A stretch of DNA of 47,880 bases from Desulfobacterales bacterium (GCA_012961955.1 DTYH01000241.1:1-47880), one strand, 5' to 3'. Positions 22,313 through 39,975 are shown, counted from the first letter of the stretch. Numbers and translations are program-made. The notes: generated from the letters alone by a model not told the origin.

Positions 22313-22327
22313 GAGGGAGGTGAAATC

Positions 22328-22627: not shown

Positions 22628-22636
22628 CACAAATGG

Positions 22637-22668
22637 GAGGGTGTCTCTCCTTTACGAGAGACACCCTC
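22637..22668 (+). terminator. Stem-loop after the sat operon
   Basis: Perfect 13-bp stem GAGGGTGTCTCTC / GAGAGACACCCTC with a 6-nt loop, 10 nt after the stop. The trailing T tract is weak (TTCT). Confidence 0.45.
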
Positions 22669-23362
22669 TTCTGACCTACCTCCCTCCTTAACCTTCTTCC
22701 TCATAAGGAAATACTCGTGGTCCGCATGCTTCTGTAGACTCGGCACACTGAGGGAGACACTTAGACGAACACGCCAAAGAAGCTTCCCGTTATCAATCCT
22801 CACATCCAGCCTCGTAACTTCCTCACTGCGACCGGAACTCGACTATTCCGGCCAAAGCTGGGGCGAGTAATTCTTGGCTTCCAATCCATTACTTTATTTC
22901 TTCGGACCAGTCCTCTTTTAGGGGGTGTATGGCATAAGATGAGCCTTCAACATCGTTCCGGTCAAAATCTTCCAAGATCGGGCGACATTCTTCAATCAGG
23001 CAAGGCTTGTTTAACACCCTCCTTCTCGATTCAGGGGTCCCTTCCCGGACGCCCATCAGCCACATGAGATCCGTACCCTTCTATTTGAGATTTGACCATT
23101 CTCTAGCTTGTACGTCTCCGAGGGTGACCTTCCTCACCTCTCTTTCTGAAAGACGGCTCAACTATGCAATAAGATTCATTTCATAGATGTGGGGTGGTTC
23201 TTTCTGAACCGATTCAATGGTTTCGGTGTAAACCTGTATTGATTCTAGCATGATCTGATCAGGAGGCTCTGAACCCCCCTTACCTCCGAGAAGAGGTAGA
23301 AGATATGCGCAACACTAATCTGAACGGGGAGAGAAAAATTTAAGAGTATCTTCTGAACGGAT

Positions 23363-23743
23363 CTAAATCAGGTGTCTCACTACCTGCCATAACTCTTCAG
23401 TATTAATTGGCTTGGCGACATAGTCCTCAGCTTCGGTAGACATCCCGTCCGCATGAGAATAGGTCGTGTTGGGCACCTTTTCGCCTACTGCTGTCAGTAG
23501 GACTATTGGGATATCCCTAGTTTCTTCCTTTGCCTTGAGCTCAGCGCACAGAACATAACCATTCTTTCTCGGCATCATAACATCGAGAACAATTAGGTCT
23601 GGCCGTCGTTTTTTAATGGATTCTTCTGCCTCGATCCCGTCATAGGCCCGACCAACTTCAAACCCTTTACTCTCCAGCATCATAGCCGCAGTTTCCAGAT
23701 CGTCAGGCTCGTCGTCCACAACCAATATGTACTTCTTGTCCAT
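23363..23743 (-). CDS. Single-domain response regulator (CheY-like receiver)
   Basis: 126-aa ORF with canonical REC residues (VVDDEPDD, LIVLDVMMP, LLTAV, YVAKP). Confidence 0.9.
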   Translation of the reverse strand: MDKKYILVVDDEPDDLETAAMMLESKGFEVGRAYDGIEAEESIKKRRPDLIVLDVMMPRKNGYVLCAELKAKEETRDIPIVLLTAVGEKVPNTTYSHADGMSTEAEDYVAKPINTEELWQVVRHLI

Positions 23744-23804
23744 GAATTTCCTCCTTTTCTTTGTTTCAAATGAAAGTAGTAAAATAACTAATCTCTACAT
23801 TCTA

Positions 23805-24737
23805 CTAAACCACCTCTGGCCTTGGATAAAGGCCGCTCCGTTCCACGATCTCCGGCACTTTCTCTTCCCACTCAATAGCCATAATGTGAAAACCTCTGAC
23901 GCCTTCCACTTCTCTGAGCCTCTGTATGGTCTCAACACATATCTTGATCCCTTCTTCTGGCTGCTTCTCCTTAGGTACACCACTCATTCTTTTGACTATT
24001 CCATCAGGCACATCCATACCAGGTACGCGATTCTTCATGTATCTTGCCATGCCTGCCGACTTTAAAGGTGTCACTCCCGCCAGGATGTATGTCTTCTCGT
24101 GGAGGCCTCTATCTCTCGCCATCTTCATCCACGACTCGAACTTCTCAACGTTATAGACACACTGGGTCTGTATAAATTCCGCCCCAGCAGCTATCTTTTT
24201 TGCCAGGCGGCGAACCCGTATCTCAAATGGGTCTGCAAATGGATTTGCCGCTGCACCCACAAACATCTTTGGAGGTCGCTGAATATCTTCCCCCCCTAGG
24301 AACTTGGCCTCATCCCTCATGAATCTGACAGTCTGAACCAAATTTATTGAGTCAAGATCGAATACGTTCTGCCCATGCGGGTTGTCGCCAAATATCTGAT
24401 GATCTCCGGAGAGGCATAATATGTTATAGATATCAAACGATGCAGCACCAAGGATATCACTTTGTAAGGCGATTCGATTCCTGTCTCTTGTGACCATCTG
24501 AAGTACTGGTTCAACACCCATTAGCTTGAGGTGGATACAGGCAGCCAGACTACAGAGGCGGGTCACTGAGGTCTGATTGTCAGTAACATTGATGGCATCA
24601 ACATGATCCTTGATCATCTTGGCCTTCTTTGTAACAAACTCTCCATCACTACCGCGGGGCGGACCGCACTCAGACGTAACTGCCAGATGTCCAGCTGCAA
24701 GAATCTTTTCCAGCTTACTCGGCGTATTTGTGTTCAT
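23805..24737 (-). CDS. metF: Methylenetetrahydrofolate reductase, acetogen/SRB type
   Basis: 310-aa ORF. MTHFR motifs (ECGPPRG, INVTDNQ, MVTRDRNRIALQSDILGA, LSGDH). ATGA overlap with upstream metV. Confidence 0.88.
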   Translation of the reverse strand: MNTNTPSKLEKILAAGHLAVTSECGPPRGSDGEFVTKKAKMIKDHVDAINVTDNQTSVTRLCSLAACIHLKLMGVEPVLQMVTRDRNRIALQSDILGAASFDIYNILCLSGDHQIFGDNPHGQNVFDLDSINLVQTVRFMRDEAKFLGGEDIQRPPKMFVGAAANPFADPFEIRVRRLAKKIAAGAEFIQTQCVYNVEKFESWMKMARDRGLHEKTYILAGVTPLKSAGMARYMKNRVPGMDVPDGIVKRMSGVPKEKQPEEGIKICVETIQRLREVEGVRGFHIMAIEWEEKVPEIVERSGLYPRPEVV

Positions 24738-25402
24738 AGTCTTAAGTCCTCCCTGACTACCCTTCTGGGTCCACCGGCCCGTTCAGTGGACCAATCTTTA
24801 ATGGGAATAATCTTCTCATAGTCGTCCAGTCTACCCAGTTCATTAAGCCGGTCGATGATAAGCTGCCAGGCACAATCGAGCTCTTTATCTATTTCACACT
24901 TCCCTTTTGTGGATCCGCCGCAAGGGCCATTGAGGATTCTTTTAGCACACCGGGAAATGGGACAGATTCCAGCTGTCTCTCCTAGGATACATTTCCCACA
25001 CCCCTGACACCGTTCGCTCCAGACACCCCTTTCCTCAGTCACCCCCATGAAGCAAGTATCTACTCCTGGCAAGACACGGGTCCTGAAATATTTCTCAGCC
25101 ATAAATTGTACTCCGGCGCCACAGGCCAAGGAGATTACTACATCATATCGGTCGATGATCTTCCTCAACTCTTCCAGATATTCGTGGTCGCACTGACGCT
25201 CCAGGGTGACCTCGTCAATCTTCATATTCTTTCCCTGATTCATGAAATACATGCGAAGCGCCGAGGCAAGTATCCCCACCTCTTTTTTGCCACCCGCCTC
25301 ACAGACTGTAACGCATTCATTACAACCTGCTATAAGGATCTTTTCATAATCCCTTACCCCTTCAATGATCTCCTCGATCGGCTTTTGTTTCGCCACAATC
25401 AT
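24734..25402 (-). CDS. metV: MetV (MTHFR C-terminal-domain, Cys-rich Fe-S/Zn subunit)
   Basis: 222-aa ORF. Cys clusters (GCNECVTVCEAGG; CQGCGKCILGETAGICPISRCAKRILNGPCGG) as in the MetF-associated small subunit of acetogens. Confidence 0.75.
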   Translation of the reverse strand: MIVAKQKPIEEIIEGVRDYEKILIAGCNECVTVCEAGGKKEVGILASALRMYFMNQGKNMKIDEVTLERQCDHEYLEELRKIIDRYDVVISLACGAGVQFMAEKYFRTRVLPGVDTCFMGVTEERGVWSERCQGCGKCILGETAGICPISRCAKRILNGPCGGSTKGKCEIDKELDCAWQLIIDRLNELGRLDDYEKIIPIKDWSTERAGGPRRVVREDLRL

Positions 25403-25469
25403 ATTGCTACGACCTCGCTTTCTAGGGTTAGTTGATCAGTCGAGTAGCCGCATCTACTCCACAAAAAAA

Positions 25470-25907
25470 TCATATCATGCACCCATTCTTTTCCTTACTT
25501 ATTTTGATCGGGTTAGGTCCCATCTTTCTTATCTTTTCCGTCATTTCAACAGCGATCTCGGCAAACCGGGGTCCTTCACCAGAAGAGAGGTTATACATCT
25601 GCACCCGCTCACCTCCAACACCTATGCTTTCCAATATATGCTGAGCCTGTTCCACCCGCTTCCGGGCCCTCAGGTTGCCGCTATTGAACCGACAGTCACC
25701 TTCCAGGCAACCGACTACATAGACTCCGTCTGCCCCCTTTTCAAAAGCCCGTAAGAGATGAAGGACATCGACTTTGCCGGTACAAGGAACACCGATAATC
25801 TTTATATTTTCTGGGTATTGGATACGCATGGAACCTGCCAGGTCCGCGGCTGAGTATCCTCAGAAGTTACAGCAAAACGTGATAATGATCGGCTCGAATC
25901 CTTCCAT
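25470..25907 (-). CDS. mvhD: MvhD-like [2Fe-2S] protein with an in-frame TGA (predicted Sec) at codon 16
   Basis: Track ORF 25470..25829 extends in frame to ATG 25907, which overlaps the hdrA stop as TAATG. Reading: MEGFEPIIITFCCNF-TGA(25860-25862)-GYSAADLAGSMRIQYP.... The TGA replaces the second Cys of the CNWC motif that is present in the paralog at 29.7 kb. Confidence 0.75.
25820..25859 (-). promoter_or_regulatory. Candidate SECIS stem-loop for mvhD copy 1
   Basis: The RNA immediately 3' of the UGA is GGAUAC-N28-GUAUCC, with an inner GGACC-UGGCA-GG(U)UCC hairpin. Confidence 0.45.
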
Positions 25908-28900
25908 TATAAGACTCCTTCCAGCAAGGCTTCGACTTTGCTTAAAACCTGTTCATCTTCGTACCAGTTTAGTTGAATCGCCTTTGCAGGGCATTCCGCG
26001 GCACAGATTCCGCAGCCGTGACACAGGGCCTCATCAATTTCGCTGGCACCCTTCTCATTGACTCGAGGTACATCATAAGGGCAAGCCCGAACACATATAA
26101 GGCATGCTGCACACCTGTCCTGGTCTACGTTTGCGGTTACGGCAGAAAGGACGATCTCTGGCTGGGAAAGGAATGTGGTAGCCCTGGAAGCTGCCGCAAG
26201 GGCCTGAGAGATGGTCTCGGATATGAGCTTTGGGCTGTGCGCTGTGCCGCACAGGAATATCCCTTCATTCGCCAGATCGACTGGTCTCAATTTGACATGG
26301 GCCTCAATGAAATATCCCTCTTCGTTTCTGGGTAGCTTGAGGATAGAAGCCAGTTCTTCTGTATCCTCAGGGACCATGCCCGAGCTCAAGGCCAGCAGAT
26401 CGGCCGGAACCTGAAGATCCCGTTGAAGCAGGTGATCCTTGAAGGTTACGATCACGCCTTCTCTTGCAGATTCAACAACCGGTGGGTTGTCGACATGGTA
26501 CCGGAAAAACGCGACGCCTTTGCGTCTGGCCTCGGTGAAATAGTCTTCCAGCAGCCCATACGTTCGTATATCACGATATAGGATATAAACCTCGGCATCC
26601 GGATTAAGCTCTTTTATATGCAAGGCATTCTTCACAGCGCTCTGACAGCAGACTCTGGAGCAGTTGGGGTTTTCCTCGTTCCTGGAACCAACGCATTGGA
26701 TCATGACCACCCGCTTGAGGTCAGAAGCCCCCTTTACCTCCAATCGTTTCCCCAGTTCAATTTGGGTCATCACGCGAGGATCCTGTCCGTATAAATACTC
26801 TTTTGGTTTGTACTCATTAGCACCAGTGGCCACAATAACCACCCCGTGCTGAATCTTCCGCTCGTACATTCGGGGACCGACCAGAATCTCCGTGGTGAAG
26901 TTCCCTTTGAATCCAGTGAATCCGACGATGAGAGATTCGGTCAGTACCTGAATCATTTTATGCTGGTTGACCTTTTCGATCAGCTCATATAGGTAGGCCT
27001 GTATATCCTCACCTTCGATAGTGGTTGTTAATTCCCTTGCCAGACCGCCAAGTTGGGCCTCTTTTTCCACAATCACCGCCTCAAAACCCTGGTCTGCAAG
27101 ACCTAAAGCGGCATTCATACCTGCAATACCGCCCCCGATCACCAGTCCTCGTCGGTTGATGGGAATCCTTTTTTCTTTGAGTGGTTTTAGTAGATTCGCC
27201 CTGGCCACCGCCATCCTTACGAGATCCTTCGCCTTGTTAGTAGCGGTCTCGGGATCGTTTCCATGAACCCATGAGTTATGGTTTCTGATATTGGCCATCT
27301 CGAACAGATACTTATTCAGACCACATGCCTGAAGAGTCTCCTGGAACATCTGTTCATGTGTCCTTGGGGAGCATGAGGCAACCACAACCCGGTTTAGATT
27401 CTTCTCTTTGATCACCTCTTTGATCTTGTCCTGGGTGTCCTGAGAGCAGGTGAAGAGATTCTGATCGGTAAAAACAACATTGGGCAGGGTGGCAGCGTAT
27501 TCGGCCACGGCAGGGACGTCAACGACACCACCAATATTGATCCCACAATTGCAGACGAAGACCCCGATCCTGGGCTCCTCTTCCGCCACATCGATCTCAA
27601 CCGGCATCTCAATGGACTTTGCGTCTCTTCCCCTTGCTTCGGCAAGTACTGTCGCTGCTGCACAAGCAGCAGCACTGGCCTCAGTAACCGAGGTGGGAAT
27701 ATCTTTTGGACCTTGAAACACTCCACTGACAAAAATGCCTGGTCGTGATGTACTGACTGGTGAAAACGGATGGGTGGCCGCAAATTTGTATTTGTTCACC
27801 TCCACACCAAGCCTTCTGGCCAGGTCAAGAAGTGAATCAGGGATTCGCAAGCCAACGGACAGCACGACCATGTTGAATGTTTCTCTCTTTAGCTCTCCTC
27901 CTTCATCAACGTACTCTATGGATAAATCTCCAGTCTCGCGTACCTCATCAATGGTGTGAATCCTGGACTTGACAAACCGGACTCCACTCTTATCCTTTGC
28001 TCGTTGGTAGTACTTCTCGTAGTCTTTTCCGAAGGTTCTCATGTCGATGTTGAATACGGTACAGTCAAGTTCTCCATGTGAATGCTCCTTGGCGATCATG
28101 GCCTCCTTTATGGCATACATGCAACAGACAGAAGAACAATAGCCATTCCCACAAAGATTGACATCCCTTGACCCCACACACTGAATCCAGGCGATTCTCC
28201 TGGGCCCTTCTCTGTCCAAGGGTCGCATAAGGTGTCCTCGATAAGGGCCAGATGCACTCAAGATTCTTTCAAACTCTTCGCTGGTGACCACGTTGGAAAA
28301 CCTACCATAACCTAATAGCTCCAAGCCTGATGGATCAAAACCCTGACTCCCTGGAGACAGTATCAACGCTCCAACAGAAAGGGTGGTTCTTCTTTCCGTA
28401 TCATCGTAATTGATGGCCTTTGCCAGGCACATGGCTTCACAAAGGCCGCAACCAATGCATGTATCTGGATCAATTGCAAAGGCAAGAGGTACAGCCTGGG
28501 CATATTCTATGTAAGCAGCTTTCCTTTCATCCAACCCTAGATTATATAGGTTGAGAGTCGTGACAGGACAGTGTTTGGCACATTCCCCACAACCCGTACA
28601 CTTAACAGGATCGATATACCGGGGATAGCTGATCAGTGTGACCTTAAAATTTCCAGGCTTGCCTTCAACGCTTTCTATTTCACTATTTGTGACGATATTT
28701 ATGTTCAGGTGCCGGCCGACCTCGACCAGTTTCGGAGAAATAATTCACATCGCGCAGTCATTGGTCGGAAAGGTCTTGTCCAAACGGGACATCATACCGC
28801 CTATACTTGACGACCTCTCCACTAGGTGAACATAGTACCCCGAATTGGCAAGATCCAATGCGGCCTGCATGCCTGAAATGCCTGCACCGATGACCATTAC

Positions 28901-28933
28901 TGATCCACTCTTGATATCTTTTATATCTCCCAT
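25907..28933 (-). CDS. hdrA: Large tandem-module HdrA-like flavoprotein (1008 codons) with an in-frame TGA (predicted Sec)
   Basis: Track ORFs 28745..28933 and 25907..28534 are in the same frame with TGA 28745-28747 as the only stop between them. Reading: VIGAGISGMQAALDLA...[21 protein letters not shown]. It has two GxGxxG sites, two CVGSR...CC modules and four CxxCxxCxxxC ferredoxin motifs. AAGGAG RBS before ATG 28933. Confidence 0.82.
28712..28729 (-). promoter_or_regulatory. Candidate SECIS hairpin for hdrA copy 1
   Basis: The RNA CUGGUC-GAGGUC-GGCCGG starts 15 nt after the UGA. It forms a 6-bp stem (including G-U pairs) with a GGUC-containing loop. The 20 nt CTGGTCGAGGTCGGCCGGCA are identical in hdrA copy 2, although flanking synonymous sites differ. 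Confidence 0.6.
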
Positions 28934-28960
28934 CTTGACTCCTTATTTGTAACCCTCAGT

Positions 28961-29713
28961 TCAGGATATTAATCCAAATACAGGCACGCTACCTTGGTAT
29001 CCTTTAAATGCAACCTGGTTAATCTTTTCCATCTCTGAAAGGAGATACGATATCCTGCGTAGTTCAAGCCCTGTACGTTTGCTGATATCCCTCACACAGG
29101 ATGAGCCTTCCTTCAATGCAAGGTAGATCTGGTTCTTCTGGTATTCCCTTTCTAAAACAGAGGTCAAGATACCCTCAAATCGGCTCGCATCCCACTTCCG
29201 ACCATATACGTCGCCTGCGGTAGTCAGTGAGACCTCCTTCCCCACGAGCCAGCGCAACGTTTCGCTGGCCACCGTCATCTCAGCTGCATCGAGCTCCAGT
29301 TTGAAGGCCCGGGCATCAAACCTACCCTGACGCTTTATCGATTCAGTAACATTGTTAACAATTTCAGCAAAACGTTGCCCTTCTGCTGAAGAACACCAGG
29401 CGATATGAAGTCTGTCTCTTCCTATAGAGGCAAGATCCAGAAGCCTTTGGGTAAGACGGATTTTCTTTTCTGCTTGAACATTACCTTCCAGGTAATGGCA
29501 ATCACCGATATGTCACCCTGAAACCAGGACCCCGTCCCAACCGTCCTTTAAGGCCTTTATGACAAACACAGGATCAACGCGTGCAGAGCACATGACCCTC
29601 ACTGACCTCAGGTTTGATGGGTATTGGAGACGAGATACCCCGGCAAGATCCGCTGCTGCGTACGCGCACCAGTTACACAAAAATGCCAATATCTTTGGTT
29701 CAAATTGTTCCAT
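28961..29713 (-). CDS. mvhD: MvhD-like protein with an in-frame TGA (predicted Sec) and a ~110-aa winged-helix-like C-terminal extension
   Basis: Track ORFs 29513..29743 and 28961..29278 are in the same frame. Reading: ...DGWDGVLVSG-TGA(29513-29515)-HIGDCHYLEGNVQAEKK...; the paralog has GCLEGDC there. Start ATG 29713 (MEQFEPKILAFLCNWCAY, AGGGAGG upstream) is preferred over 29743. C-terminus: SCVRDISKRTGLELRRISYLLSEMEKINQVAFKG. Confidence 0.72.
29479..29497 (-). promoter_or_regulatory. Candidate SECIS hairpin for mvhD copy 2
   Basis: The RNA CAUUACC-UGGAA-GGUAAUG forms a perfect 7-bp stem with a 5-nt loop and starts 15 nt after the UGA. Confidence 0.55.
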
Positions 29714-30231
29714 GTTGTCTACAACCTCCCTTTCACCAGCCATCTACACTCATTCCCAGAACTCCAGTTAATCAATCGCAACATTTAAGCGTTCTGAAAC
29801 AAGCCGGTTGCATCAGACTCAAGCTGAACTTACGATGCAGGATATATGATGCATTCGGCGGAAACACATTGCACGTAAACCCCGTGTGAAAAAAGAAGTA
29901 TGTGTCGATTTTGACCCCGTGATTCCGCACGGGGCTTTTCTAGCGGAGTAAATCCAGTTATCCGCGTAACCTTTCATAAGCAAAACCAACCGTAGGGTGG
30001 CATCTTACATCTCACCGAAATTGCGGTGTGGTGCAAACCCCTTACAAATATTATCAAACCATAAGGCTTGTGGCTGCTTACTCTATCCTCGGTTTTGCAC
30101 GTAGCCATGACTATAACCAGATTTGCGGGATGCTGTAATCTTGCATCGTGTATCGTATGTTCAGAATTCGGCTTGTCTTTTGACGGGGCACGGTTTGTTT
30201 CAAGAGGCTGAAGTCTTAAAACCAATCAATC

Positions 30232-33200
30232 TTATATCCCAGCAGATACGGCCGCCAAGATCTGGCGATCCCTGAAATGGAGCATATCGACAGCCCTTTG
30301 TGGACATGAGGCTGCACATAATCCGCATCCCTTGCAGGAAGCCTGAATGTTTTTTGCCCGATACCCCTTGCCCTCTATCTCCTCCATGAGAATACCTCCA
30401 AAACTGCACACTTGTGCACACAGGCCACATCCGATACATCTATCACTGTCTATCTGCGCGACAATAGGAGAAATCTTAATAGAAGGCTTTGAAAGGACAA
30501 CGGAAGCCCTGCTCGCGGCAGCCATCGCTTGAGTAATGCTTTCATCGATCGGTTTAGGATGGTGCGCCAAACCACACACGAATAAGCCGTCATTTGCAAA
30601 ATCTACAGGTCTGAGCTTTGCGTGGGCCTCTACAAAAAACCTATCATCGTCTAAGGGTAGCTTGAAATAACTGGCAAGCTCTTCATGCCCTGATGGTTCA
30701 ATGGCCGTCGCCAGATTCAGGAAATCCGATTTGATCAAAAGATCCCTCTGAAGGACTGGATCAAATACACGAATCTCGAGTCCATCACCTACTTCATTGA
30801 CAATAGGCTTCTTTTCAGGGGTGTATCTAATAAAGATTATTCCCTTCTCCCTTGCTTTCCGGTAAAGGGCTTCTTTCTCCCCATATGTCCTAATATCCCG
30901 ATATAATATAAAAATCTCCATATCGGGCTTTTGTTCTTTTAGATGAATGGCCTGCGTAATAGATGTCGTGCAACAGAGCCTTGAGCAGTAAGGTCTACGT
31001 TCGTCCCTTGATCCCACACACAGGATAAAAGCAACAGCTTTAGCATTCCTGATCTTGTCCGGATCTTGCTCAAGTTCATGCCATCGCGTCACCCTCGGAT
31101 TCTTGCCATAAAGGTACTCATCTGTGCTTGAAGCCCGTGCACCGGTAGCTATAATCCCCACTCCATGCTTGATAATCCTGGCCTCTCCTTTGTGAAGGAC
31201 TTCTGTTTCAAAGTTGCCGATAAAACCCGAAGAACCTGTCACCTCTGCGTTCAACAGGACTTCCATTCGAGGATGGCTCTCCACCCTGTTCACCAAGTCA
31301 GATAGATACTTGTTAACATCCTTCCCACCCCATGTCTCTTTGATGTCTCTTGCATTTCCTCCCAATACGGACGATTTTTCGACAATAGTTGTGGGAAAAC
31401 CCTGGTCAGCAAGGCTCAAGGCCGCATTCATACCAGCAACACCCCCTCCAATAACAAGCGCAGATCTCTCAATCTCCACCACTACATCTGGAATAGGCTC
31501 TAACAAAGATGCCTTTGCAATAGCCATCCTCACAAGGTCTTTGGCCTTTTCTGTGGCTGTCTCTTTACTATCGGAATGGACCCACGTGCATTGATTCCGG
31601 ATATTGGCCATTTCGAATAGATGCTGGTTCAATCCAGCCTTCCGTATGGTTTCCTGAAATAGAGCTTCATGTGTCTTTGGTGAACACGCCGCAACCACAA
31701 GGCGGTTCAGAGCGTGTTCTCTGATCACCTCAACCATCTTCTCCTGTGTGTCCTGGCTGCAGGTAAAAAGATTCTCTTCAACGTAGACCACATTGGGCAG
31801 GGTTTTTGCGTATTCCGCTATGGCAGGAACATCTGCAAACCCGCCAATATTTACTCCACAGTTGCACACAAATACGCCTATACGTGGCCCTTCATCGGTC
31901 ACATCATTTTCTTTAGGAAATACATGTTCCTTAATTAGTTGCCCTCGGGACGGAGCCAAGCTGGTAGCTGATGCGCACGCCGCTGCACTTGCCTCCATAA
32001 CACACTGAGGAATGTCCTTGCATCCCTGAAGCAGCCCGGCAACATAGATGCCTGGCCTGGAAGTCGCAACGGGCAAGAAATCCTCTGTATCCACAAAGTT
32101 GTACTGGTTAAGCCGAATACCCAGATTTTTGGCTAGGTCTACGGCAGGTTTCGCGGGTTCCATACCGACTGACAGGACGACCATATCAAACTCTTCTTCA
32201 ACCACCTTCCCGGATTCCTCCAAATAGTACTCGATTTTGAGTGTACCGGTCTCATCTGCTTGCGTAATAGTGTGTACTCTCGAACGGATAAAGCGAACCC
32301 CTTCAGATTTGGCCCTTTCAAGATATCTTTCAAACCCCTTTCCGTATGTTCGTATATCCATATAGAAGATAGCGCCCACGAAATCGTCCCCGATATGTTC
32401 CTTTGCAACCATGGCCTCCTTGATCGCATACATGCAACAGACCGATGAGCAGTACTCGTTGTCGCACCGGTTGACGTCGCGGGAACCAACACATTGAAGC
32501 CATGCGATCCTTCTCGCCTTTCTCTGGTCAGAAAGACGGACCACATCTCCGGCATAAGGGCCCCCGGCTGAAAGGATCCGTTCAAACTCTATGCTGCTCA
32601 CCACATTGGGAAGTGTGGAATATTGGTAATTATCGAACCGGGAAGGATCAAACGGTCGAAAACCGCCTGTCAAGATGATAGACCCGACCTCGATCTTTAC
32701 GATCTCTTCCTTCTCATCGAAATTGATTGCCCCGGCAGGGCAGAACTTTTCACAGGCCTTACACCTGCCGCCTTTCTTGAAGTATATGCATCTGCCTGGG
32801 TCAAGAACATATTTGAAAGGCACAGCCTGAGCGTATGGTAAATAGGCAGCCTTCCTAGTTGCGAGACCCTGGTTGAATTCGTCAACAGCCTTCGCAGGAC
32901 ACTTTTCAGCACATATCCCACAGGCAATACATTTTTCCATATCCACATAGCGAGGGGATCTCCTCAGGGTGACATCAAAACGACCCTCCTCTCCATCAAT
33001 GCTGCTTACTTCTGAAAGAGTAAGGAGTTCAATATTTATATGCCGGCCGACCTCGACCAGCTTTGGCGAAAGAATTCACATAGCACAGTCATTGGTCGGA
33101 AAGGTCTTATCTAGCTGGGCCATGACTCCGCCAACCGCGGGAGATTTTTCCACAAGATAAACATAGTAGCCCGACTCAGCCAGATCTAATGCCGATTGGA

Positions 33201-33267
33201 GCCCGGTGATACCACCTCCCACAACCATGACTGACCCTATCAGGTCATTAGATTCTCTCTTGGTCAT
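30232..33267 (-). CDS. hdrA: Large tandem-module HdrA-like flavoprotein, paralog 2 (1011 codons), with an in-frame TGA (predicted Sec)
   Basis: Track ORFs 33076..33267 and 30232..32946 are in the same frame with TGA 33076-33078 as the only stop between them. Reading: [21 protein letters not shown], the same position as in paralog 1. Same domain order as paralog 1. Confidence 0.82.
33043..33060 (-). promoter_or_regulatory. Candidate SECIS hairpin for hdrA copy 2
   Basis: Identical CUGGUCGAGGUCGGCCGG element at the same 15-nt offset from the UGA as in copy 1. Confidence 0.6.
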
Positions 33268-33282
33268 TCTCCATATTCCTCT

Positions 33283-34158
33283 CTACAGGTTTGCTGCGTT
33301 AAGAACCTGTGGGAGCTTATCCTCCCACCCTACGGTTGAGATCATAACTCCTGCCATTCCCATATCTTTCAACTGGTTAATGAGTTCCCCTGCTATTTGA
33401 ATACAATGCTTTAACCTGTCCGGTGCTTTCTGAATCCCCCTTATCATCTCGGAGGGGATGGAGATGTTCTTGATGTTTCGATCGATGTAGCGTGCCATTC
33501 CAACAGACTTTAGAAGGAGAACAGTCGGGATCACAGCAACTTGGCTTGTATCTATTCGTTTAATGAACTGCTGGAATTGGTGAAGGTCAAAGACTGGGGT
33601 AGTAACGACAAATTCCACCCCAGCCTCTATCATCTTTTGAAGGTTCTCTATCTCCGTGTCTAGGCCACTGCCGACCGCGCCCGCGTTAATAGTCGAACCG
33701 ATAAAGAACTCTGGTGCACTTGAAAGCTCTATCCCTGCCATATCCCTGCCCCTTTGAAGCTTTTGAATCGTCTCCACTAGTTGTATCAGGTCTAAATCGT
33801 ATACAGCCTTTGCCTGGGGATGATCACCATATCGGATATCTTCGCCCGAGACGGCCATGATATTAGGTATTCCTAAAGCAGCCGCAGCAAGGACGTCTCC
33901 CTGTAGGGCCAACCTGTTTCGATCCCGACAACATACCTGAAAAACCGTCTCAAAACCGTTCATTTGAAGAAAGACACATCCGCCGAGAGAACTTGCCTTC
34001 ATTACGGAGTTGGCCATTTCAGGTATCACAAGCGCATCTAAGCGACCCTTTACCTGGTTGGCATTCTTCAAAAGACGAGAGAAGTCAGCACCTTTAGGCG
34101 TTTCAAATTCACCCAGCACGATATGTTCACCAGATTCTATCTTTTCCTTTAGCGGCAT
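33283..34158 (-). CDS. Divergent MetF-like (MTHFR family) protein, no adjacent MetV
   Basis: 291-aa ORF, collinear with MTHFR motifs (QVCCRDRNRLALQGDVLAAAALGI, AVSGED, FFIGSTIN, TPVFD). 15 nt upstream of hdrA paralog 2. Confidence 0.7.
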   Translation of the reverse strand: MPLKEKIESGEHIVLGEFETPKGADFSRLLKNANQVKGRLDALVIPEMANSVMKASSLGGCVFLQMNGFETVFQVCCRDRNRLALQGDVLAAAALGIPNIMAVSGEDIRYGDHPQAKAVYDLDLIQLVETIQKLQRGRDMAGIELSSAPEFFIGSTINAGAVGSGLDTEIENLQKMIEAGVEFVVTTPVFDLHQFQQFIKRIDTSQVAVIPTVLLLKSVGMARYIDRNIKNISIPSEMIRGIQKAPDRLKHCIQIAGELINQLKDMGMAGVMISTVGWEDKLPQVLNAANL

Positions 34159-34159
34159 A

Positions 34160-34549
34160 TTACAAACCTCCGAGTTTGTGGGCTAATTTATTGATAGCGT
34201 TGGAGATAGCCATTTCAAGGTCCTCAATTCCAAAGGACTTTACGTGATAGTAGAATATCCTCTGCTGGCGAATCCTGCTTTCGAGTTCTGGCGTATTGAC
34301 TTCAGCACAGATAATGATCGGGAGGTCCCTCACCATACCTTTGATAACAGAAATAAATCCGCAATCCTTCTCCAAAAGTGCAGCATCCAAGACCAGGACG
34401 TCTATACTCTGGCTCTGGAGGGTCAAGAGAGTCTCTTTTAAGGTTCCCGCAAGCATAACCCTGTAGCCCCTTTTGGTCAAAAATGAATGGAGTTCAGACG
34501 AAATCGCCTCCACTGGTTCAGCAAAAAGGACTGTCCTCTCTTTTTTCAT
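34160..34549 (-). CDS. Receiver-like (atypical REC) single-domain protein
   Basis: 129-aa ORF with a CheY-like beta-alpha pattern. It keeps VLVLDAAL and a late Lys (HVKSF) but lacks the N-terminal acidic pair (VLFAEPVE). Its stop is 1 nt from the metF-like start. Confidence 0.6.
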   Translation of the reverse strand: MKKERTVLFAEPVEAISSELHSFLTKRGYRVMLAGTLKETLLTLQSQSIDVLVLDAALLEKDCGFISVIKGMVRDLPIIICAEVNTPELESRIRQQRIFYYHVKSFGIEDLEMAISNAINKLAHKLGGL

Positions 34550-34569
34550 AAAGCAAGCCCTTTGATCGT

Positions 34570-34699
34570 AACTGTTCAGGGGGTAAAGCTTTTCTTAAAG
34601 CGACTTGGCGGAAGCCTTTGTTTTTCCATGAGTCGAGAGTAGGGGAAACCAGAACCACCACGGTTCACCCCGCTAGAAAAACCTCACCTCGTGAACAGT
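34570..34699. repeat. Dispersed repeat family C, copy C2 (inside the predicted 5' UTR of the cluster)
   Basis: Left end aactgttcagggggtaaagcttttc, right end gaaaaacctcacctcgtgaacag (inverted). Internal gcgacttggcgga and cctttgtttttcca are shared with C3 and C1. Confidence 0.75.
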
Positions 34700-34751
34700 G
34701 ACCTATGATCTTGTGATATCAGATATGGACTCGAATCTGTTCTCTTTTAGA

Positions 34752-34766
34752 GCAATGTTGGTGCCT
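34752..34766 (-). promoter_or_regulatory. Sigma54 (-24/-12) promoter
   Basis: The minus strand reads AGGCAC-CAACA-TTGCT against consensus TGGCAC-N5-TTGCW, with exact GG-N10-GC spacing. It lies ~200 nt upstream of ATG 34549 and downstream of an NtrC-type activator gene. Confidence 0.6.
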
Positions 34767-34843
34767 AATCTAAAAAAATAGTTAGACGAGATATTTCAAA
34801 TGGTTATGTTGTGTGGTTAATCAAGGGAGAATTTAGGACATGA

Positions 34844-34944
34844 GTAATTTTGTAACACATATGACGATTAAGTCTGTATAACATTGTGATTATACAGGAC
34901 TTTTTTCAGTTGCGAGGATAGCTCGCTTGATGTTACAAAATTAC
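34844..34944. promoter_or_regulatory. Candidate enhancer (UAS) palindromes upstream of the sigma54 promoter
   Basis: Perfect 14-nt inverted repeat GTAATTTTGTAACA (34844-34857) / TGTTACAAAATTAC (34931-34944), enclosing CTGTATAA-N8-TTATACAG (34874-34897). Located 80-190 nt upstream of the -24 element. Confidence 0.35.
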
Positions 34945-34976
34945 ACGTCCATCATCCAGAAAGAAGCGGGAGACAT

Positions 34977-35002
34977 AACTGTTCACGGGGGTGAAGCTTT
35001 TC
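34977..35002. repeat. Solo family-C terminal repeat
   Basis: aactgttcacgggggtgaagcttttc with no matching right end nearby. Confidence 0.6.
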
Positions 35003-35040
35003 AACAGGTCCTGAAGGGTTCTTAGAAGGTTGGAACTCGG

Positions 35041-36402
35041 TCAAGAAAGGTTATACCTCTTTATTTTCAGCCCTAATGTCTTGCGATTTATACCGAGTAT
35101 CTTTGCAGCCAGAGTCTTCTTCCCTCTGGTTCTCTGCAACACAAATCGGATATACTTCTTCTCCAGTTCTTCCAGGCTGAGAAGCTCTTCGGAAAATATC
35201 TGAAACTCTCCCTGCCTCTGCGAGATATACGCAGGCAGATTGCTAGCGCGTATTACGTCCGTATCTTCCAGGACAAGAATGCGCTCTATGATATGTTTGA
35301 GTTCTCTCACATTTCCCGGCCAAGCGTACTCTTTCAGTATCTCAATAGCCTCGGGTGAGACCTCAGGGATGGGCTTTTTTATCTTCTGACTGAATTGGTT
35401 AAGAAAGTGGTCTATAAGGAGGGGGATATCCTCCTTTCTTTCCCTTAGGGGAGGAAGATGAATGGGTACCACACTGAGACGATAATAGAGGTCTTCTCTG
35501 AAGGTTCCAGCTTTAATCGAATCATGGAGATCCTTATTGGAAGCAGATATGATCCTTATATCCAGTTTGATCTTCTTCTGATCTCCTACCTTCATGAATT
35601 CCCTTTCCTGGATCACCCGTAGAAGTTTTGCCTGAGTTGTCAGACTTAAGTTGGAAATTTCATCGAAGAAAAAGGTTCCATGATTAGCCAGCTCAAAAAG
35701 ACCGTGTTTTGTGTGTATCGCTCCAGTAAATGAACCCTTAACATGACCAAAAAGTTCACTCTCTAGGAGTGTCTCAACAAGGGACGAACAGTCCACCGCC
35801 ACAAATTCCTTATGACTCCGATTACTGTTTACATGAATTGCTCTGGCTACCAATTCCTTCCCTGTTCCGCTCTCTCCTGTAATAAGTACAGTGCTGTCCG
35901 TAGGTGCTACCCTGAGTATCTTATCGAATATCTCCTTCATGGGAGGGCTCTGGCCGACGATCAGGTGTTTGCTCGATTCAATCTTGAGCCCAAATTTATT
36001 TACTATAGACTTTTTGGATACCGTATCAGTCGGTTTAATCTTATTTATAGCGACCTCCAGATCATCGATCCGAAATGGTTTGACCAGATAATCCAAAGCT
36101 CCGAGTTTAATACATTGAACGGCCGTATCTATGGTTGGGTAACCGGTAATCATGATGACCCTTGTATCAGGATGTTTAACCCGTATCTCCTTCAACACCT
36201 GTATACCGTCCATATCCTCCATGCGAATATCAAGGAGGACAAGATCAAATCTGCTGTGCGCTAAAAGACTAAGGGCCTCACTACCATTTGCAGCCAGGAC
36301 AGAACTGATCCCTCTATTTCTGAGAATTCTATCGATTCCGTTACGGACAACAGGCTCGTCGTCTACAACCAGCACTCGATTTATATTGTTAAAAGAGTTC
36401 AT
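35041..36402 (-). CDS. Sigma54-dependent response regulator (NtrC family: REC-AAA+-Fis HTH)
   Basis: Track ORF 35041..36453; ATG 36402 (MNSFNNINRVLVVDDEP) is the likelier start. Walker A GESGTGKE, GAFTGA-type loop (GSFTGA), C-terminal HTH (KTLAAKILGINRKTLGLKIKRY). Confidence 0.9.
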   Translation of the reverse strand: MNSFNNINRVLVVDDEPVVRNGIDRILRNRGISSVLAANGSEALSLLAHSRFDLVLLDIRMEDMDGIQVLKEIRVKHPDTRVIMITGYPTIDTAVQCIKLGALDYLVKPFRIDDLEVAINKIKPTDTVSKKSIVNKFGLKIESSKHLIVGQSPPMKEIFDKILRVAPTDSTVLITGESGTGKELVARAIHVNSNRSHKEFVAVDCSSLVETLLESELFGHVKGSFTGAIHTKHGLFELANHGTFFFDEISNLSLTTQAKLLRVIQEREFMKVGDQKKIKLDIRIISASNKDLHDSIKAGTFREDLYYRLSVVPIHLPPLRERKEDIPLLIDHFLNQFSQKIKKPIPEVSPEAIEILKEYAWPGNVRELKHIIERILVLEDTDVIRASNLPAYISQRQGEFQIFSEELLSLEELEKKYIRFVLQRTRGKKTLAAKILGINRKTLGLKIKRYNLS

Positions 36403-36490
36403 AACAAAAGAACCCCTACCAAAGAATAGTAACATTTTTGCGTTTTTAAACAACGTAACAGCCGCATTAAACTCAAGCTGAATGCGCGAT

Positions 36491-37984
36491 TCACGATACG
36501 TGAACCGTCACCCCTTCTTTTATGACCGGCAACAGTATTCTGAACGTCGTACCTTCATTGGGAACACTTTCCACATCGATAGTGCCACGATGTGCTTCAA
36601 CAATGCCCTTTACTATTGCAAGACCCAGACCCGTGCCAACAACCTGCCGTGTTTTTGGATGCTTCACCCTATAAAACTTATCAAAAATTTTTGGTAGCTC
36701 CTCTGGTTCGATCCCCACGCCGGTATCCGAAACCTTTATCTCCATGTACTCACCAAGCCCCCTGGCACTCACATTCACTAGACCTCCATCAGGGGAATAA
36801 TTGATAGCGTTGATAATCAAGTTGTTGAAGATCTCTTGTACGTTTTTGGGATCGCCCTGCACCGGCTTCATGTTTTCGCATGAATACGAGAGAGTTATAC
36901 CCTTTTCTTTTGCTATCGGTTCCATCGTGCTCACTACATCCCGTATGATCTCTTCCACATCTATGGGAACCTGGTGCTGGACATACCTCCCCTCCTCAAT
37001 TCTGGCCACGTCAAGGAGGTCATTTATTAATCTAATGAGTTGATCTATCTTCCTTAATCCCCTGCTTATGAAATCCCGCTGCTTTTCCTGTAACGGGCCT
37101 GTCAATCCTTCTAAAATAACGGTGTTCAACTGTCTGAGAGAAATAAGCGGGCTCCGCAGTTCATGAGCTACCATATTGACAAAATCCGATTTCATCTGGT
37201 CCAGTTGTTTGAAGGCGGTGATATTATCAAAGACTGTCACTGTTCCCACCACACTATTGTCAGGACTGAGTACTGGTGCTGACATGATCCGCAGCACATT
37301 CTTGCCAACACTTATCTCCTGAGAGATGGACTCTCTTTCAGAGCATTGGCCGGACAGAATATTCTTGAGAGTTGTCAAGAGGGCCTCATCATTAATGATA
37401 GAGGTTAAGGCCACGGGGTTTTCTATATCTCCAGGCACTTCCAGCAATCTCATCAATGCAGGATTGTGGAGTACTACCTCTAGATTACGGTTGGTTACCA
37501 TTACACCATTGGCCATACAGTTAATTATGGTCTTTAGTCGACTCTTCTCCATATGCAGGTCATAAAGGTTTCGTATATTTTTCTCTTGAAACGATCTAGC
37601 TTTTTGTTCGAGCCTCCTCTTTTCAGAGGCCCTGTTCACCGTCAAGAGAAACTGGTCGACCTGGAAAGGCTTAGTAATGAAATCATAAGCACCTTTCTTC
37701 ATGCACTCCACGGCCGTGTCAACGGTTCCATGGCCAGTAATAATAATGACAGGTATGTCTGGATATTGGTCACGGGCCTTTTCAAGAACCTCTTCTCCAC
37801 TCATGACAGGCATTTTCAGATCGAGAAGGATGATATCCACCTCTTCCCTTTTGAGGATATCCATGGCCTCCTGTCCATTTTCTGCAGACACGACCCCATA
37901 GCCTTTTCCGGTTAACACCCGCTGGCACCCTTCCCTGACAATCTTCTCGTCGTCTACCACTAAAACTTTGATTTCTTCGTTCAT
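36491..37984 (-). CDS. Hybrid REC-PAS-histidine kinase
   Basis: 497-aa ORF. N-terminal receiver (VLVVDDEK, ILLDLKMP), PAS, H-box HELRSPL, HATPase_c (GTGLGLAIVKG). ATGA overlap with the upstream kinase gene. Confidence 0.88.
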   Translation of the reverse strand: MNEEIKVLVVDDEKIVREGCQRVLTGKGYGVVSAENGQEAMDILKREEVDIILLDLKMPVMSGEEVLEKARDQYPDIPVIIITGHGTVDTAVECMKKGAYDFITKPFQVDQFLLTVNRASEKRRLEQKARSFQEKNIRNLYDLHMEKSRLKTIINCMANGVMVTNRNLEVVLHNPALMRLLEVPGDIENPVALTSIINDEALLTTLKNILSGQCSERESISQEISVGKNVLRIMSAPVLSPDNSVVGTVTVFDNITAFKQLDQMKSDFVNMVAHELRSPLISLRQLNTVILEGLTGPLQEKQRDFISRGLRKIDQLIRLINDLLDVARIEEGRYVQHQVPIDVEEIIRDVVSTMEPIAKEKGITLSYSCENMKPVQGDPKNVQEIFNNLIINAINYSPDGGLVNVSARGLGEYMEIKVSDTGVGIEPEELPKIFDKFYRVKHPKTRQVVGTGLGLAIVKGIVEAHRGTIDVESVPNEGTTFRILLPVIKEGVTVHVS

Positions 37985-39975
37985 GATTCATCCAATCCAA
38001 TGAAAACATCCTCTTCGATGGGTTGTTCTCTCAATTTACGAGGGAGCTCGATGATAAAATTGGTCCCTCCTTCGGGTGGACACTCAAAATCGATTCTACC
38101 CCCGTGCAACTTAATGATATTTTGGGTAATGCTCAAACCGAGTCCTGTGCCCTTCCCCGTCGGTTTAGTGGTAAAAAACATATCGAATATCTTGTCCCGG
38201 AATTCTTCTGGAATGCCCGGCCCGGAGTCAGCAACGGAAATGATAAACCTTTGTTGCTCCGCCTCATATCGAGCCTTGATATCCAATCTCCCTCTCCCCT
38301 CCATTGCGTCGGCTGCGTTGATGAAGAGGTTTGTAAAAACCTGCTGAAGCTGACCAATATCCCCTATCATTTCAGGCATATTACTTTGTATATCCTTCTT
38401 CACCTCGATATTTTGGAATGACGCCTGGTTGATCAATAGATTGAGGCACTGTTCTATCAATCTCTCTAAACTAAAAAAGGATACCTTACCTATCGATTTG
38501 CGACTGAACTCTAGTAAGTCCGATACGATCCTTTTGCATCGAAGTGTTTGTTGAATCATTTCCTCTAAATCGTCCAAAGACTGAGGATCATCCTTAAGGT
38601 TTTCCTTGAGCAACTCAGCATAGATCAGAATACCTGATAATGGGTTGTTTATCTCGTGTGCTACTCCAGCGGCCATTCTCCCTATAGATGCGATCTTATC
38701 CGATTGGATCAGTTGAAGCTGGGCTTCTTCCAATTCCCTTCGCATCTTCAGTATTTCTCGCATATCGGTGAACACCCCCACGCTTCCCATCTCTTTTCCA
38801 TCAACACGTATAATCGAGGCGGACAGTGTCACTGGTATCTTTTCACCATCTTTAGTTGTTATGAACATACTGGTGGGGTTCAGTTTATCAGGAGGACCGT
38901 ATTGGCTACTCCGCATCTTTTTCATATTTTCTCTTGCCATCTCTATGTCATAAAAACTGCTCAAGTGTCCTTTGTTGATGATCTCCTGAGCCGAATATCC
39001 AGTCAGTCGTTCCATACCTTCATTAAAGATAAGGACCTTTCCTTTTGTATCCACCACAACGATCCCGTCCACAGTACTCTGGATTACGTTTTGAAGGAAT
39101 GTGTTCGATTTTCGCACTTCATGCTCGAGCTTGATCCTATCAGTTACGTCCCTTGAGGCCTCCACCAATTGAACGGTTTCGCCGTGATCATTTAGTATAG
39201 GAGAGACTGTGATGACATCAAACCGCTGTTCCCCGTTTTCATCCCGGTATTCGTGAATCGTGCTGATTACCTCTTTTTCTTTTTTAACCTTTTCCAGATA
39301 ACATATCCTGCCATCTTCGCTGCACGGCTTATCCAAACCGTACCTCACCTCGTAACAGTATCTACCCACAACCTCCTCAGATCTGAAACCGTATTCCCTG
39401 AGAAAGGTCTGGTTTACCGCTTCAATGGTGTTGTCCCTGTTTACCACCATAACTCTATATGGCAGGGAATCCAGTATGGTCTGGGTGTACTTCTTCTTTT
39501 GTTCTTCGTACAGCCTACGTTCCCTTTCAAACGCGACCTTTTCGCTTTCGACCAGGAACAGATCCCATAGAATCCTCAAGATTCCTGCAGACCTGTGATC
39601 GATTAAAGCAACCCCTGAAGGCTTTGTACGAAGGATTTCTTTCCTGACCTCCTCACGTCCGGTAAGTTCAAGGATAAGATTAAGACCTTCAAGTTTGTAC
39701 AGCTCCTTAAAATCGTTGGTAGTAAAGAGGTTAAGATCCCTGGCGTAAACCAGGCCTGGTGAGTTTTCGTTTGAACTTGCCACTCCCAGAATCTTCATGT
39801 TTATCCGGGACAGGCGATCCTTGTCCAGGATTTTGAGAAGGAAATAACATACCTTTCCGCCGCCTACAATGGCCACATTAAGGGGATTTTTCGACATTTT
39901 CTCCTGGATACCTTCAAGTATCCTATTTGAGGTGAAATCTGTCGTTGATTCCGACATGGTCCTATCAAGAATCAA
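37981..39975 (-). CDS. Cytoplasmic sensor histidine kinase: Rossmann-like N-domain, 2 PAS, HisKA, HATPase
   Basis: 664-aa ORF. N-terminus NVAIVGGGKVCYFLLKIL... (dinucleotide-fold-like), a Cys-containing PAS (RYCYEVRYGLDKPCSEDGRICY), H-box AHEINNPL, G-box GTGLGLS. No TM helices seen. Confidence 0.85.
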   Translation of the reverse strand: MILDRTMSESTTDFTSNRILEGIQEKMSKNPLNVAIVGGGKVCYFLLKILDKDRLSRINMKILGVASSNENSPGLVYARDLNLFTTNDFKELYKLEGLNLILELTGREEVRKEILRTKPSGVALIDHRSAGILRILWDLFLVESEKVAFERERRLYEEQKKKYTQTILDSLPYRVMVVNRDNTIEAVNQTFLREYGFRSEEVVGRYCYEVRYGLDKPCSEDGRICYLEKVKKEKEVISTIHEYRDENGEQRFDVITVSPILNDHGETVQLVEASRDVTDRIKLEHEVRKSNTFLQNVIQSTVDGIVVVDTKGKVLIFNEGMERLTGYSAQEIINKGHLSSFYDIEMARENMKKMRSSQYGPPDKLNPTSMFITTKDGEKIPVTLSASIIRVDGKEMGSVGVFTDMREILKMRRELEEAQLQLIQSDKIASIGRMAAGVAHEINNPLSGILIYAELLKENLKDDPQSLDDLEEMIQQTLRCKRIVSDLLEFSRKSIGKVSFFSLERLIEQCLNLLINQASFQNIEVKKDIQSNMPEMIGDIGQLQQVFTNLFINAADAMEGRGRLDIKARYEAEQQRFIISVADSGPGIPEEFRDKIFDMFFTTKPTGKGTGLGLSITQNIIKLHGGRIDFECPPEGGTNFIIELPRKLREQPIEEDVFIGLDES

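Follow-up and report, generated by a model that had tools for sequence, protein, structure and literature searches.

We have analyzed a stretch of 47,880 nucleotides of DNA from a Desulfobacterales bacterium (GCA_012961955.1, DTYH01000241.1:1-47880; the whole stretch is called the window below) and found in it nine co-directional minus-strand genes that bring together two proteins of the methylenetetrahydrofolate reductase (MTHFR) family, MetV, two HdrAs (Hdr standing for heterodisulfide reductase), two MvhDs and two single-domain receivers. We consider, with a probability of roughly 0.6, that this cluster forms, in a sulfate reducer of the Desulfobacterales type, an inducible operon and that it encodes a soluble multi-flavin, multi-FeS, Hdr-type methyl-/methylene-tetrahydrofolate (H4F) oxidoreductase. 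An initial annotation of the same DNA had proposed a variant, possibly electron-bifurcating, methylene-H4F reductase/oxidase system with a composition that matched no characterised one. The gene content, the conservation among relatives, what is known of the biochemistry of related enzymes and the residues E356/K409 of both HdrAs support this proposal, and no characterised complex with this set of subunits appeared among the solved structures and the literature found.

Six-frame reading of positions 23300-34800, together with Pfam and NCBIfam scans, gave in order of transcription RECu, MetFL, HdrA1, MvhDx, HdrA2, MvhD2, MetV, MetF and RECd (Table 1), in agreement with the gene order, strand and coordinates first annotated. 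The successive junctions measure 1, 15, 488, 27, -1, 67, -4 and 61 nt; at the -1 junction (TAATG) the ATG of MvhD2 overlaps the stop of HdrA2, and the -4 junction (ATGA) is the overlap of MetV and MetF. The annotation had described the junctions as tight, of at most 27 nt, apart from one gap of 490 nt. Most of them are, but those between MvhD2 and MetV and between MetF and RECd are wider, and the gap is real, at 488 nt. MvhDx probably starts at 29713. The MetF is 80% identical to its orthologue in the related locus L001 (the loci compared carry L numbers), while MetFL and the MetF of the same operon share 32% identity.

Two fused HdrAs and four predicted selenoproteins

We aligned the four HdrA modules, two per protein, with the solved HdrA 5odc_A. 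Both proteins (1011 and 1008 aa) are double-module forms of about 1000 aa, as had been stated, and the modules could be mapped on the structure. Module 1 (approximately residues 1-450) comprises the thioredoxin-reductase fold with an inserted ferredoxin domain, and in both HdrAs it keeps the positions Cys194 and Sec197 and also E356 plus K409, the bifurcating-flavin signature in the form in which PMC9430772 takes it from Appel et al. Module 2 carries the N-terminal domain as well as the ferredoxin domain of the C-terminus, and there the E/K pair is incomplete, being E/T in HdrA1 and G/K in HdrA2. All the elements of a bifurcating HdrA are present once per fused protein, divided between the two modules. 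Each fused HdrA is, as predicted from this alignment, a covalent pseudo-dimer with complementary losses that mimics the HdrA homodimer. Besides, Sec63 of both proteins aligns with Cys197 of 5odc_A (motif NDCSIC), the residue that in methanogen HdrA serves as a ligand to the N-terminal [4Fe-4S] cluster of the other protomer (PMC9012536). The same complementary-loss fusion is found in HdrA3/4 of anaerobic methanotrophic archaea (ANME) and in the MTHFR-linked HdrA of Moorella (Chadwick et al., PMC9012536), and the 101-kDa HdrA of Sporomusa is similar (PMC9430772), so that a double-module HdrA is typical of Hdr-type MTHFRs and not unusual.

HdrL, an HdrA with a GltD/NfnB-like NAD(P)H module, is known from Desulfobacterium autotrophicum and Syntrophobacter (PMC2702500, PMC5947623). 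Outside a GltD-like insert of about 465 aa, HdrA1 and the HdrL of locus L083 (GCA_030613055.1) share 70% identity, and HdrA1 can thus be described as an orthologue of HdrL that is devoid of the NAD(P)H module. In the proteins of L083, L088 (JGI 3300027690, Ga0209164_1000158), L089 and L090 this insert sits within the inserted ferredoxin domain. We have rejected the possibility that the HdrAs of the window are themselves members of HdrL, since the NAD(P)H-binding insert is absent and neither HdrA1 nor HdrA2 has a Pfam match to Fer4_20.

HdrA1, HdrA2, MvhDx and MvhD2 each contain one in-frame TGA, beyond which the homologous reading frame continues. We have examined the codons found at these sites in about 90 loci. 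The HdrA Cys197 site is TGA in 28 cases and a Cys codon in 94 (49 TGC, 45 TGT), the MvhD G-x-H site is TGA in 19 and Cys in 84 (42 TGC, 42 TGT), and the MvhD N-W-x site is TGA in three and Cys in 118 (60 TGC, 58 TGT); codons other than these three did not occur at any of the site types. At the UGA site of MvhD2 the TGA is present also in L084 and L085 (GCA_964573885.1), with Cys codons in all the other loci. Interchange of Sec and Cys at recoded sites is a classic mark of true selenoproteins, and both HdrA and MvhD/VhuD count among the known families of selenoproteins (PMC13188914), so the four selenoproteins predicted from the beginning are upheld. Database entries for the homologues of HdrA2 are mostly fragments of 923-945 aa, beginning just 3' of the UGA. 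A candidate hairpin of the selenocysteine insertion sequence (SECIS) type starts 14-18 nt 3' of each UGA, with a G-rich loop (GGU, GGA or GGC), but its z scores are only -0.1 to -1.6; the hairpin element CUGGUCGAGGUCGGCCGG after the UGA is identical in HdrA1 and HdrA2, with unexceptional folding energies. The genes selA, selB, selC and selD are not in the window or its contig. As a separate observation, the 6.1-Mb relative that holds L001 has after RECd an HdrD-like gene (L001:15573-16895) with an in-frame stop between its 2x[4Fe-4S] and CCG parts, which lie in the same frame. It is probably a fifth selenoprotein, of GlpC/HdrD type.

Residues 1-140 of MvhDx are a normal MvhD (E 2e-40 to 5odc_D). 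We modeled the exact fragment that follows the Sec with AlphaFold (AF2), which gave at a pLDDT of 89.6 a helical linker followed by a winged helix, and the best Foldseek matches of this tail were Zalpha, ArsR/SmtB, MarR and DsrD, with target-normalised TM scores up to 0.87. The tail of the window protein is marginal in Pfam (HTH_24, E 0.03), and homologues at 48-50% identity exceed the Pfam thresholds for HTH_5 and MarR_2. The model, the Foldseek matches and the homologues bear out the winged-helix tail first noticed on one of the MvhDs, and the C-terminus of MvhDx is a predicted winged helix-turn-helix (wHTH) domain. Searches of the PDB gave no solved relative of this extension and none of MetV.

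The two receivers at the ends of the cluster differ. Both are present, as annotated, but the upstream one is degenerate. In RECu and its orthologues, in the numbering of CheY, the positions D12, D13 and T87 have become E, P and A in the four closest orthologues, with T87 kept in L013, and D57 is a His in L084. RECd keeps all five CheY signature residues and its place after metF is conserved in most complete loci. We observed also in RECd (window, L001, L021 and L083-L085) a conserved insertion of about five residues, in Y(S/T)HADGMSTEA(D/E)D just before beta5, that CheY does not have.

Relatives of the operon and known complexes

The conservation of the neighbourhood, a point raised by the initial annotation, is clear in the closest relatives, L083, L084 and L085, with HdrA2 proteins 78-81% identical to that of the window. 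In the three of them the full layout recurs, with two histidine kinase genes and that of an enhancer-binding protein (HK-HK-EBP) ahead of REC-MetFL-HdrA1-MvhDx-HdrA2-MvhD2-MetV-MetF-REC, and CCG genes are absent over 10 kb around it. A genome-wide scan seeded with MvhDx and tabulated by tblastn extended the picture to the central part of the operon. The tandem HdrA-MvhD(wHTH)-HdrA-MvhD was found in Desulfobacterota (including Desulfococcaceae HSG8 and the Olavius Delta 4 symbiont), Dehalococcoidia, Bathyarchaeia, Thermoplasmata and Asgard archaea (Promethearchaeota). Usually it adjoins hdrC-hdrB or a fused, apparently Sec-containing hdrD, and in L003-L008, L016, L027, L032 and L035 it is followed by metV-metF, a combination seen in Desulfobacterota and Asgard archaea. 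The tandem is an old module. The hdrA-mvhD unit had been described as duplicated, and there are indeed two pairs; however, a recent tandem duplication had to be rejected, because the paralogues are only 40-51% identical (about 51% for the HdrAs and about 40% for the MvhDs) and the tandem is conserved across phyla.

MetFL has its own distribution, which we followed by three locus look-ups and a metagenome scan. Its homologues include hundreds of proteins of 291 aa at 70% identity or more, and in more than 25 metagenome contigs the gene is always directly 5' of that of an HdrA or HdrL and near MetVF. The dominant context, widespread in Desulfobacterota, is REC(degenerate)-MetFL-HdrL-MvhD-MetV-MetF-REC-ACT (abbreviated rfLdVFRT), with an HdrL of about 1480 aa that includes the GltD/NfnB-like NAD(P)H module; among the complete contigs with this context, at least 15 have no hdrCB in cis. 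The tandem is rare within MetFL operons (the window, L083-L085, L138, L001, L021 and L013). The window is thus a rare hybrid, a MetFL operon plus the tandem, with an HdrA1 that has no NAD(P)H-binding insert. Its components are all from known families and the operon family is common in metagenome-assembled genomes; since both the tandem and the hdrBC-less MetFL operon are widespread in such genomes, the novelty is limited. Two further observations concern these relatives. A conserved protein of about 340 aa, with weak matches to the ACT domain, follows RECd in nearly all the hdrBC-less ones (L083-L085, L088-L090 and many of L095-L163), but the window does not have it, and non-coding DNA of 735 nt is found there instead. 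In L088, two complete HdrA/HdrL-MvhD-MetV-MetF clusters lie on one contig with only the kinase-kinase-activator block between them.

No hdrBC, hydrogenase or Flox genes had been noticed in the window, and we found none. Queries of HdrD-like, HdrC and HdrB proteins from L001, L021, L027 and L044 (tblastn) had no match in it, and no CCG domain was detected by Pfam in its open reading frames of at least 182 aa. A position of hdrBC immediately outside the window had been left as a possibility, but the precomputed Pfam lists of the contig (ENA ERZ23486261 scaffold_97) contain no CCG/HdrB, HdrC or HdrD gene between positions 1505 and 63328 of 71314, i.e., over about 62 kb. This absence can be read in a simpler way. 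The enzyme might be an ordinary MetFV-HdrABC-MvhD of the Moorella type with its HdrB/C or fused HdrD encoded at another locus, so that the difference would be one of gene placement and not of composition. We hold this to be a serious but clearly less probable explanation. hdrBC or hdrD could be encoded elsewhere in the genome, as hdrABC is often apart from metFV-mvhD (Poudel et al., PMC6085437) and sulfate-reducer genomes hold many HdrD/HdrBC paralogues (PMC2702500). hdrC-hdrB or a fused hdrD stands beside the tandem in most loci (L003-L008, L016, L027-L033, L044, L049, L059 and L069), and a distant MetFL branch (MetFL about 53-56% identical; L133, L141 and L157) ends in MetF-REC-HdrC-HdrB, as does L001. 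On the other hand, within the lineage of the window at least 15 independent complete contigs have no CCG gene within 10 kb, the 62 kb covered of the window's own contig have none either, and such a consistent loss from the operon suggests that the HdrBC module is dispensable or replaced.

The nearest known system is the Hdr-type MTHFR MetFV-HdrABC-MvhD (Mock et al. 2014; Kremp et al. 2022, PMC9430772), with which the window shares the MetF plus MetV core beside MvhD and a two-module HdrA, the E/K signature in one module and a role predicted for the Wood-Ljungdahl pathway, at its MTHFR step. It differs in having no HdrB/HdrC in cis, two HdrAs and two MvhDs instead of one each, an additional MetFL, selenoproteins in all four HdrA/MvhD positions, sigma54/two-component control and two receiver genes. 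Module 1 retains the inserted ferredoxin domain that the HdrA of S. ovata does not have, whereas the GltD/NAD(P)H domain of the Moorella HdrA is absent. That metF and hdrA lie together in sulfate reducers and in marine Chloroflexi has been published before (PMC10553843, PMC5736913, PMC6085437), and the only relatives studied biochemically are the Moorella and Sporomusa enzymes, which contain HdrABC (PMC9430772). In these, MetFV and HdrABC-MvhD interact, while a second redox partner is still to be found (PMC9430772, PMC6295475). With the methanogen HdrABC-MvhAGD (PDB 5ODC) the HdrA domains align at E ~1e-187 and the MvhDs at E ~1e-40, with Sec at the Cys197 position; in the window there is a fused pseudo-dimer instead of a homodimer, no hydrogenase and no HdrBC, and a folate partner instead of CoM-S-S-CoB. 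The HdrL/rfLdVFRT operon shares with the window the flanking genes RECu, MetFL, MvhD, MetV, MetF and RECd, but in the window the insert and the ACT-domain gene are missing and a second HdrA-MvhD pair, with the wHTH MvhD, is added. BamE/BamF of class II benzoyl-CoA reductase are a large HdrA-like selenoprotein and an MvhD-like protein mounted, as a module for electron bifurcation or transfer, on a catalytic unit that does not act on heterodisulfides; the catalytic partner there is the tungsten protein BamB, and the complex includes the HdrBC-like BamCD. The selenoprotein nature of BamE is mentioned in PMC5109826. Bam and the window, likened here by description only, have in common the HdrA-like selenoprotein with its MvhD-like unit, the partner in the window being an MTHFR.

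Promoter, intergenic insertion and flanking DNA

Sigma54 control of the cluster had been proposed from a -24/-12 element, and we found it supported on three sides. All five orthologous loci have the consensus (A/G)GGCA(C/T)-N5-TTGCT at 77-217 nt from the first gene, on its upstream side (77-111 nt in L083, L084, L085 and L013), a palindromic site is located upstream and the gene of an NtrC-type activator is adjacent. Over the whole window sigma54-like matches are at chance level (18 observed, 19.8 expected), so that the promoter call rests on its position and on the conservation in orthologues. The perfect inverted repeat found 78-178 nt upstream of the element is present in the window and in three of the four other loci (L083, L084 and L085), and its sequence and position make it a probable binding site of the adjacent activator. 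As for the regulators, the PAS kinase gene is upstream also in L084, L085, L088 and L090, the REC-histidine kinase gene is kept in L083-L085, and the activator gene is directly 5' of the operon also in L083-L085 and L088. rpoN itself was not seen. Probably the adjacent two-component system and its NtrC-type activator drive this conserved sigma54 promoter.

Table 1. Position of the operon genes and of the features around them, from the upstream regulatory genes to the downstream end
Feature	Coordinates	Strand	Evidence or remark
PAS-domain sensor histidine kinase, first of the regulatory block	37981..39975	-	Pfam PAS_4, PAS_9, HisKA, HATPase_c
Hybrid REC-histidine kinase	36491..37984	-	Pfam Response_reg, HisKA, HATPase_c
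NtrC-type sigma54 enhancer-binding protein (REC, AAA+, Fis-type HTH)	35041..36453	-	Sigma54_activat E 3e-69, Response_reg, HTH_8
Probable enhancer (upstream activating sequence), perfect 14-nt inverted repeat GTAATTTTGTAACA / TGTTACAAAATTAC	34931-34944 / 34844-34857	-	Arms conserved in L083-L085
-24/-12 element AGGCACcaacaTTGCT	34751..34766	-	One mismatch to TGGCAC-N5-TTGCW
RECu, degenerate single-domain receiver	34160..34549	-	Pfam REC, weak, 32 bits
MetFL, 291-aa MTHFR paralogue without MetV partner	33283..34158	-	PF02219 E 2.5e-24
HdrA1, fused two-module HdrA, predicted selenoprotein, 1011 aa	30232..33267	-	Sec codon TGA 33076-33078
Non-coding insertion between hdrA1 and mvhDx, 488 nt	29744..30231	-	Orthologous junctions far shorter
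MvhDx, MvhD/FlpD [2Fe-2S] protein with predicted C-terminal winged helix	28961..29743	-	FlpD E 2.5e-49; Sec codon TGA 29513-29515
HdrA2, second fused two-module HdrA, predicted selenoprotein, 1008 aa	25907..28933	-	Sec codon TGA 28745-28747
MvhD2, short MvhD, predicted selenoprotein	25470..25907	-	FlpD E 1e-48; Sec codon TGA 25860-25862 in CCNF-U-GY
MetV, DUF5981, MTHFR-associated Fe-S subunit	24734..25402	-	PF12225 E 1.5e-37
MetF, MTHFR catalytic subunit	23805..24737	-	PF02219 E 6.6e-36
RECd, canonical single-domain response regulator	23363..23743	-	Response_reg E 3.5e-24
Strong terminator-like hairpin, common to the operon and the convergent sat-DUF6955 unit	22637..22668	-	13-bp stem, 8 GC pairs
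sat	21053-22312	convergent with the operon	Pfam scan

The orthologous hdrA1/mvhDx junction is only 20-56 nt long where it could be measured (L084, L085), and 45 nt in L001, so the 488 nt found in the window are a lineage-specific insertion. Within it, a repeat of about 105 nt (29976-30079, minus strand) has a second copy at 7810-7914 on the plus strand (73% identity over 109 nt, E 1e-11). The latter is upstream of a gene that encodes a fusion of a Na+/H+ exchanger with PTS EIIA2, and both copies point in the same way as the next gene. The repeat has no Rfam match, does not occur in the orthologous loci and could be a small element, either mobile or regulatory. We have discarded that the gap is a decayed gene or a recognisable RNA, given that blastx against the proteins of the cluster gave no similarity, Rfam gave no match and the folding is no better than that of shuffled sequence (z = -0.65).

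The insertion is also where one would look for signs of two separate enzymes, REC-MetFL-HdrA1 and MvhDx-HdrA2-MvhD2-MetV-MetF-REC, transcribed and assembled independently in this genome, an arrangement that we judge quite unlikely. A repeat found elsewhere upstream of a gene, a weak sigma70-like match (30139-30110) and a weak terminator-like hairpin (30070-30055) would fit it, and so would the MetFL-HdrA-MvhD unit that stands alone in L012 and the single-HdrL (rfLdVFRT) operons, which work without a second HdrA. However, the gap contains no second sigma54 element with two or fewer mismatches, generic promoter and terminator matches are no commoner than in shuffled controls, the short orthologous junctions imply that the ancestral state is a single operon, and the adjacency of the tandem genes has been kept across phyla.

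Downstream, DUF6955 and sat (Pfam) are convergent with the operon, the latter in line with the sat-containing organism of the annotation, and the hairpin that both units share is likely the 3' limit of transcription. The 735 nt past RECd (22628-23362) hold no remnant of an HdrD or ACT-domain gene, and an Rfam scan of 22300-35200 at E <= 1 gave no match. Far from the operon, at 5209-7626 on the plus strand, six short reading frames in three frames all match PF06050 (HGD-D, 2-hydroxyacyl-CoA dehydratase family), in what looks like a frameshifted or pseudogenised gene pair, or an assembly error.

Proposed electron transfer and its alternatives

The methyl-/methylene-H4F couple, at -200 mV, is too positive to reduce NAD+ or ferredoxin in the oxidative direction. 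Methyl-tetrahydrofolate oxidation is an endergonic step that needs bifurcation (PMC6295475), and Hdr genes beside metF have been proposed to solve it in syntrophic acetate oxidisers and in the sulfate-reducing partners of ANME (PMC6295475, PMC10553843). In the oxidoreductase that we propose, MetFV, and probably MetFL, would exchange electrons through MvhD with the flavins of HdrA, the two MvhDs wiring them to the two pseudo-dimeric HdrAs. Each HdrA would contribute a single flavin that bears the bifurcation signature and a single domain for the docking of ferredoxin. Flavin-based bifurcation or confurcation would then link the folate couple to ferredoxin and to a second partner of higher potential, and the thermodynamic block at the MTHFR step would be removed, both for a Wood-Ljungdahl pathway run oxidatively by a complete oxidiser and for one run in the reductive direction. 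Since HdrCB/HdrD and the NAD(P)H insert are absent, the high-potential partner would come from another locus, or its part would be handled by the second MTHFR/HdrA pair.

Several points weigh against this proposal. All functional statements on the operon are predictions made from its genes. The canonical high-potential exit is missing, because HdrB/C/D are not in cis, and with no NAD(P)H domain the substrates other than H4F are not assignable. For the Moorella complex, too, bifurcation has never been demonstrated (PMC6295475, PMC9430772). The sigma54/two-component control suggests a conditional role and not a central catabolic one, and the 488-nt insertion could split the operon of this genome into two transcripts. 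Finally, the window contains no Wood-Ljungdahl genes, which makes the pathway context an assumption.

Very improbable, in our opinion, is a non-bifurcating wire in which HdrA/MvhD relay the electrons of MetFV to ferredoxin or another carrier with no energetic coupling: in several acetogens MetVF by itself uses reduced ferredoxin to reduce methylene-tetrahydrofolate (PMC8515935, PMC8760232), there are HdrA homologues that do not bifurcate (Appel et al. 2021, as cited in PMC9430772) and module 2 of both HdrAs has no full E/K signature, but module 1 of both keeps E356, K409 and the inserted ferredoxin domain, and the strong conservation of two selenoflavoproteins of about 110 kDa, 78-81% identical in the closest relatives, is hard to explain for a simple relay.

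The bifurcating folate oxidoreductase that we favor also admits a bolder version, which we put forward tentatively and think rather doubtful. The window and its relatives may belong to an HdrBC-independent class of MTHFR-HdrA enzymes of Desulfobacterota, in which MetFL would take the exit or docking role of HdrBC. In the sub-branch of the window the second HdrA-MvhD pair would replace the NAD(P)H module, and the resulting bifurcating enzyme, linked purely to ferredoxin and folate, would have two sites for flavin bifurcation and two for folate. If true, the MTHFR step of the Wood-Ljungdahl pathway, so far unresolved, would have a new scheme of coupling, and the tandem that spans phyla would stand as a bifurcation core of its own, as yet uncharacterised.

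In terms of energy, the puzzle of that pathway is the methylene-/methyl-H4F reductase step, and the operon family of MetFL, HdrL/HdrA, MvhD and MetVF is very common and strongly conserved in marine and sediment Desulfobacterota, usually without HdrBC. The most informative by-products of our analysis are that the hdrBC-less MetFL-HdrL-MvhD-MetVF operon is widespread and that the tandem of two HdrAs and two MvhDs spans phyla. The comparison of these natural variants offers a direct route to the modules that set the electron partners of the enzyme. Besides, its conditional deployment, suggested by the sigma54/two-component control, bears on models of complete-oxidising sulfate reducers.

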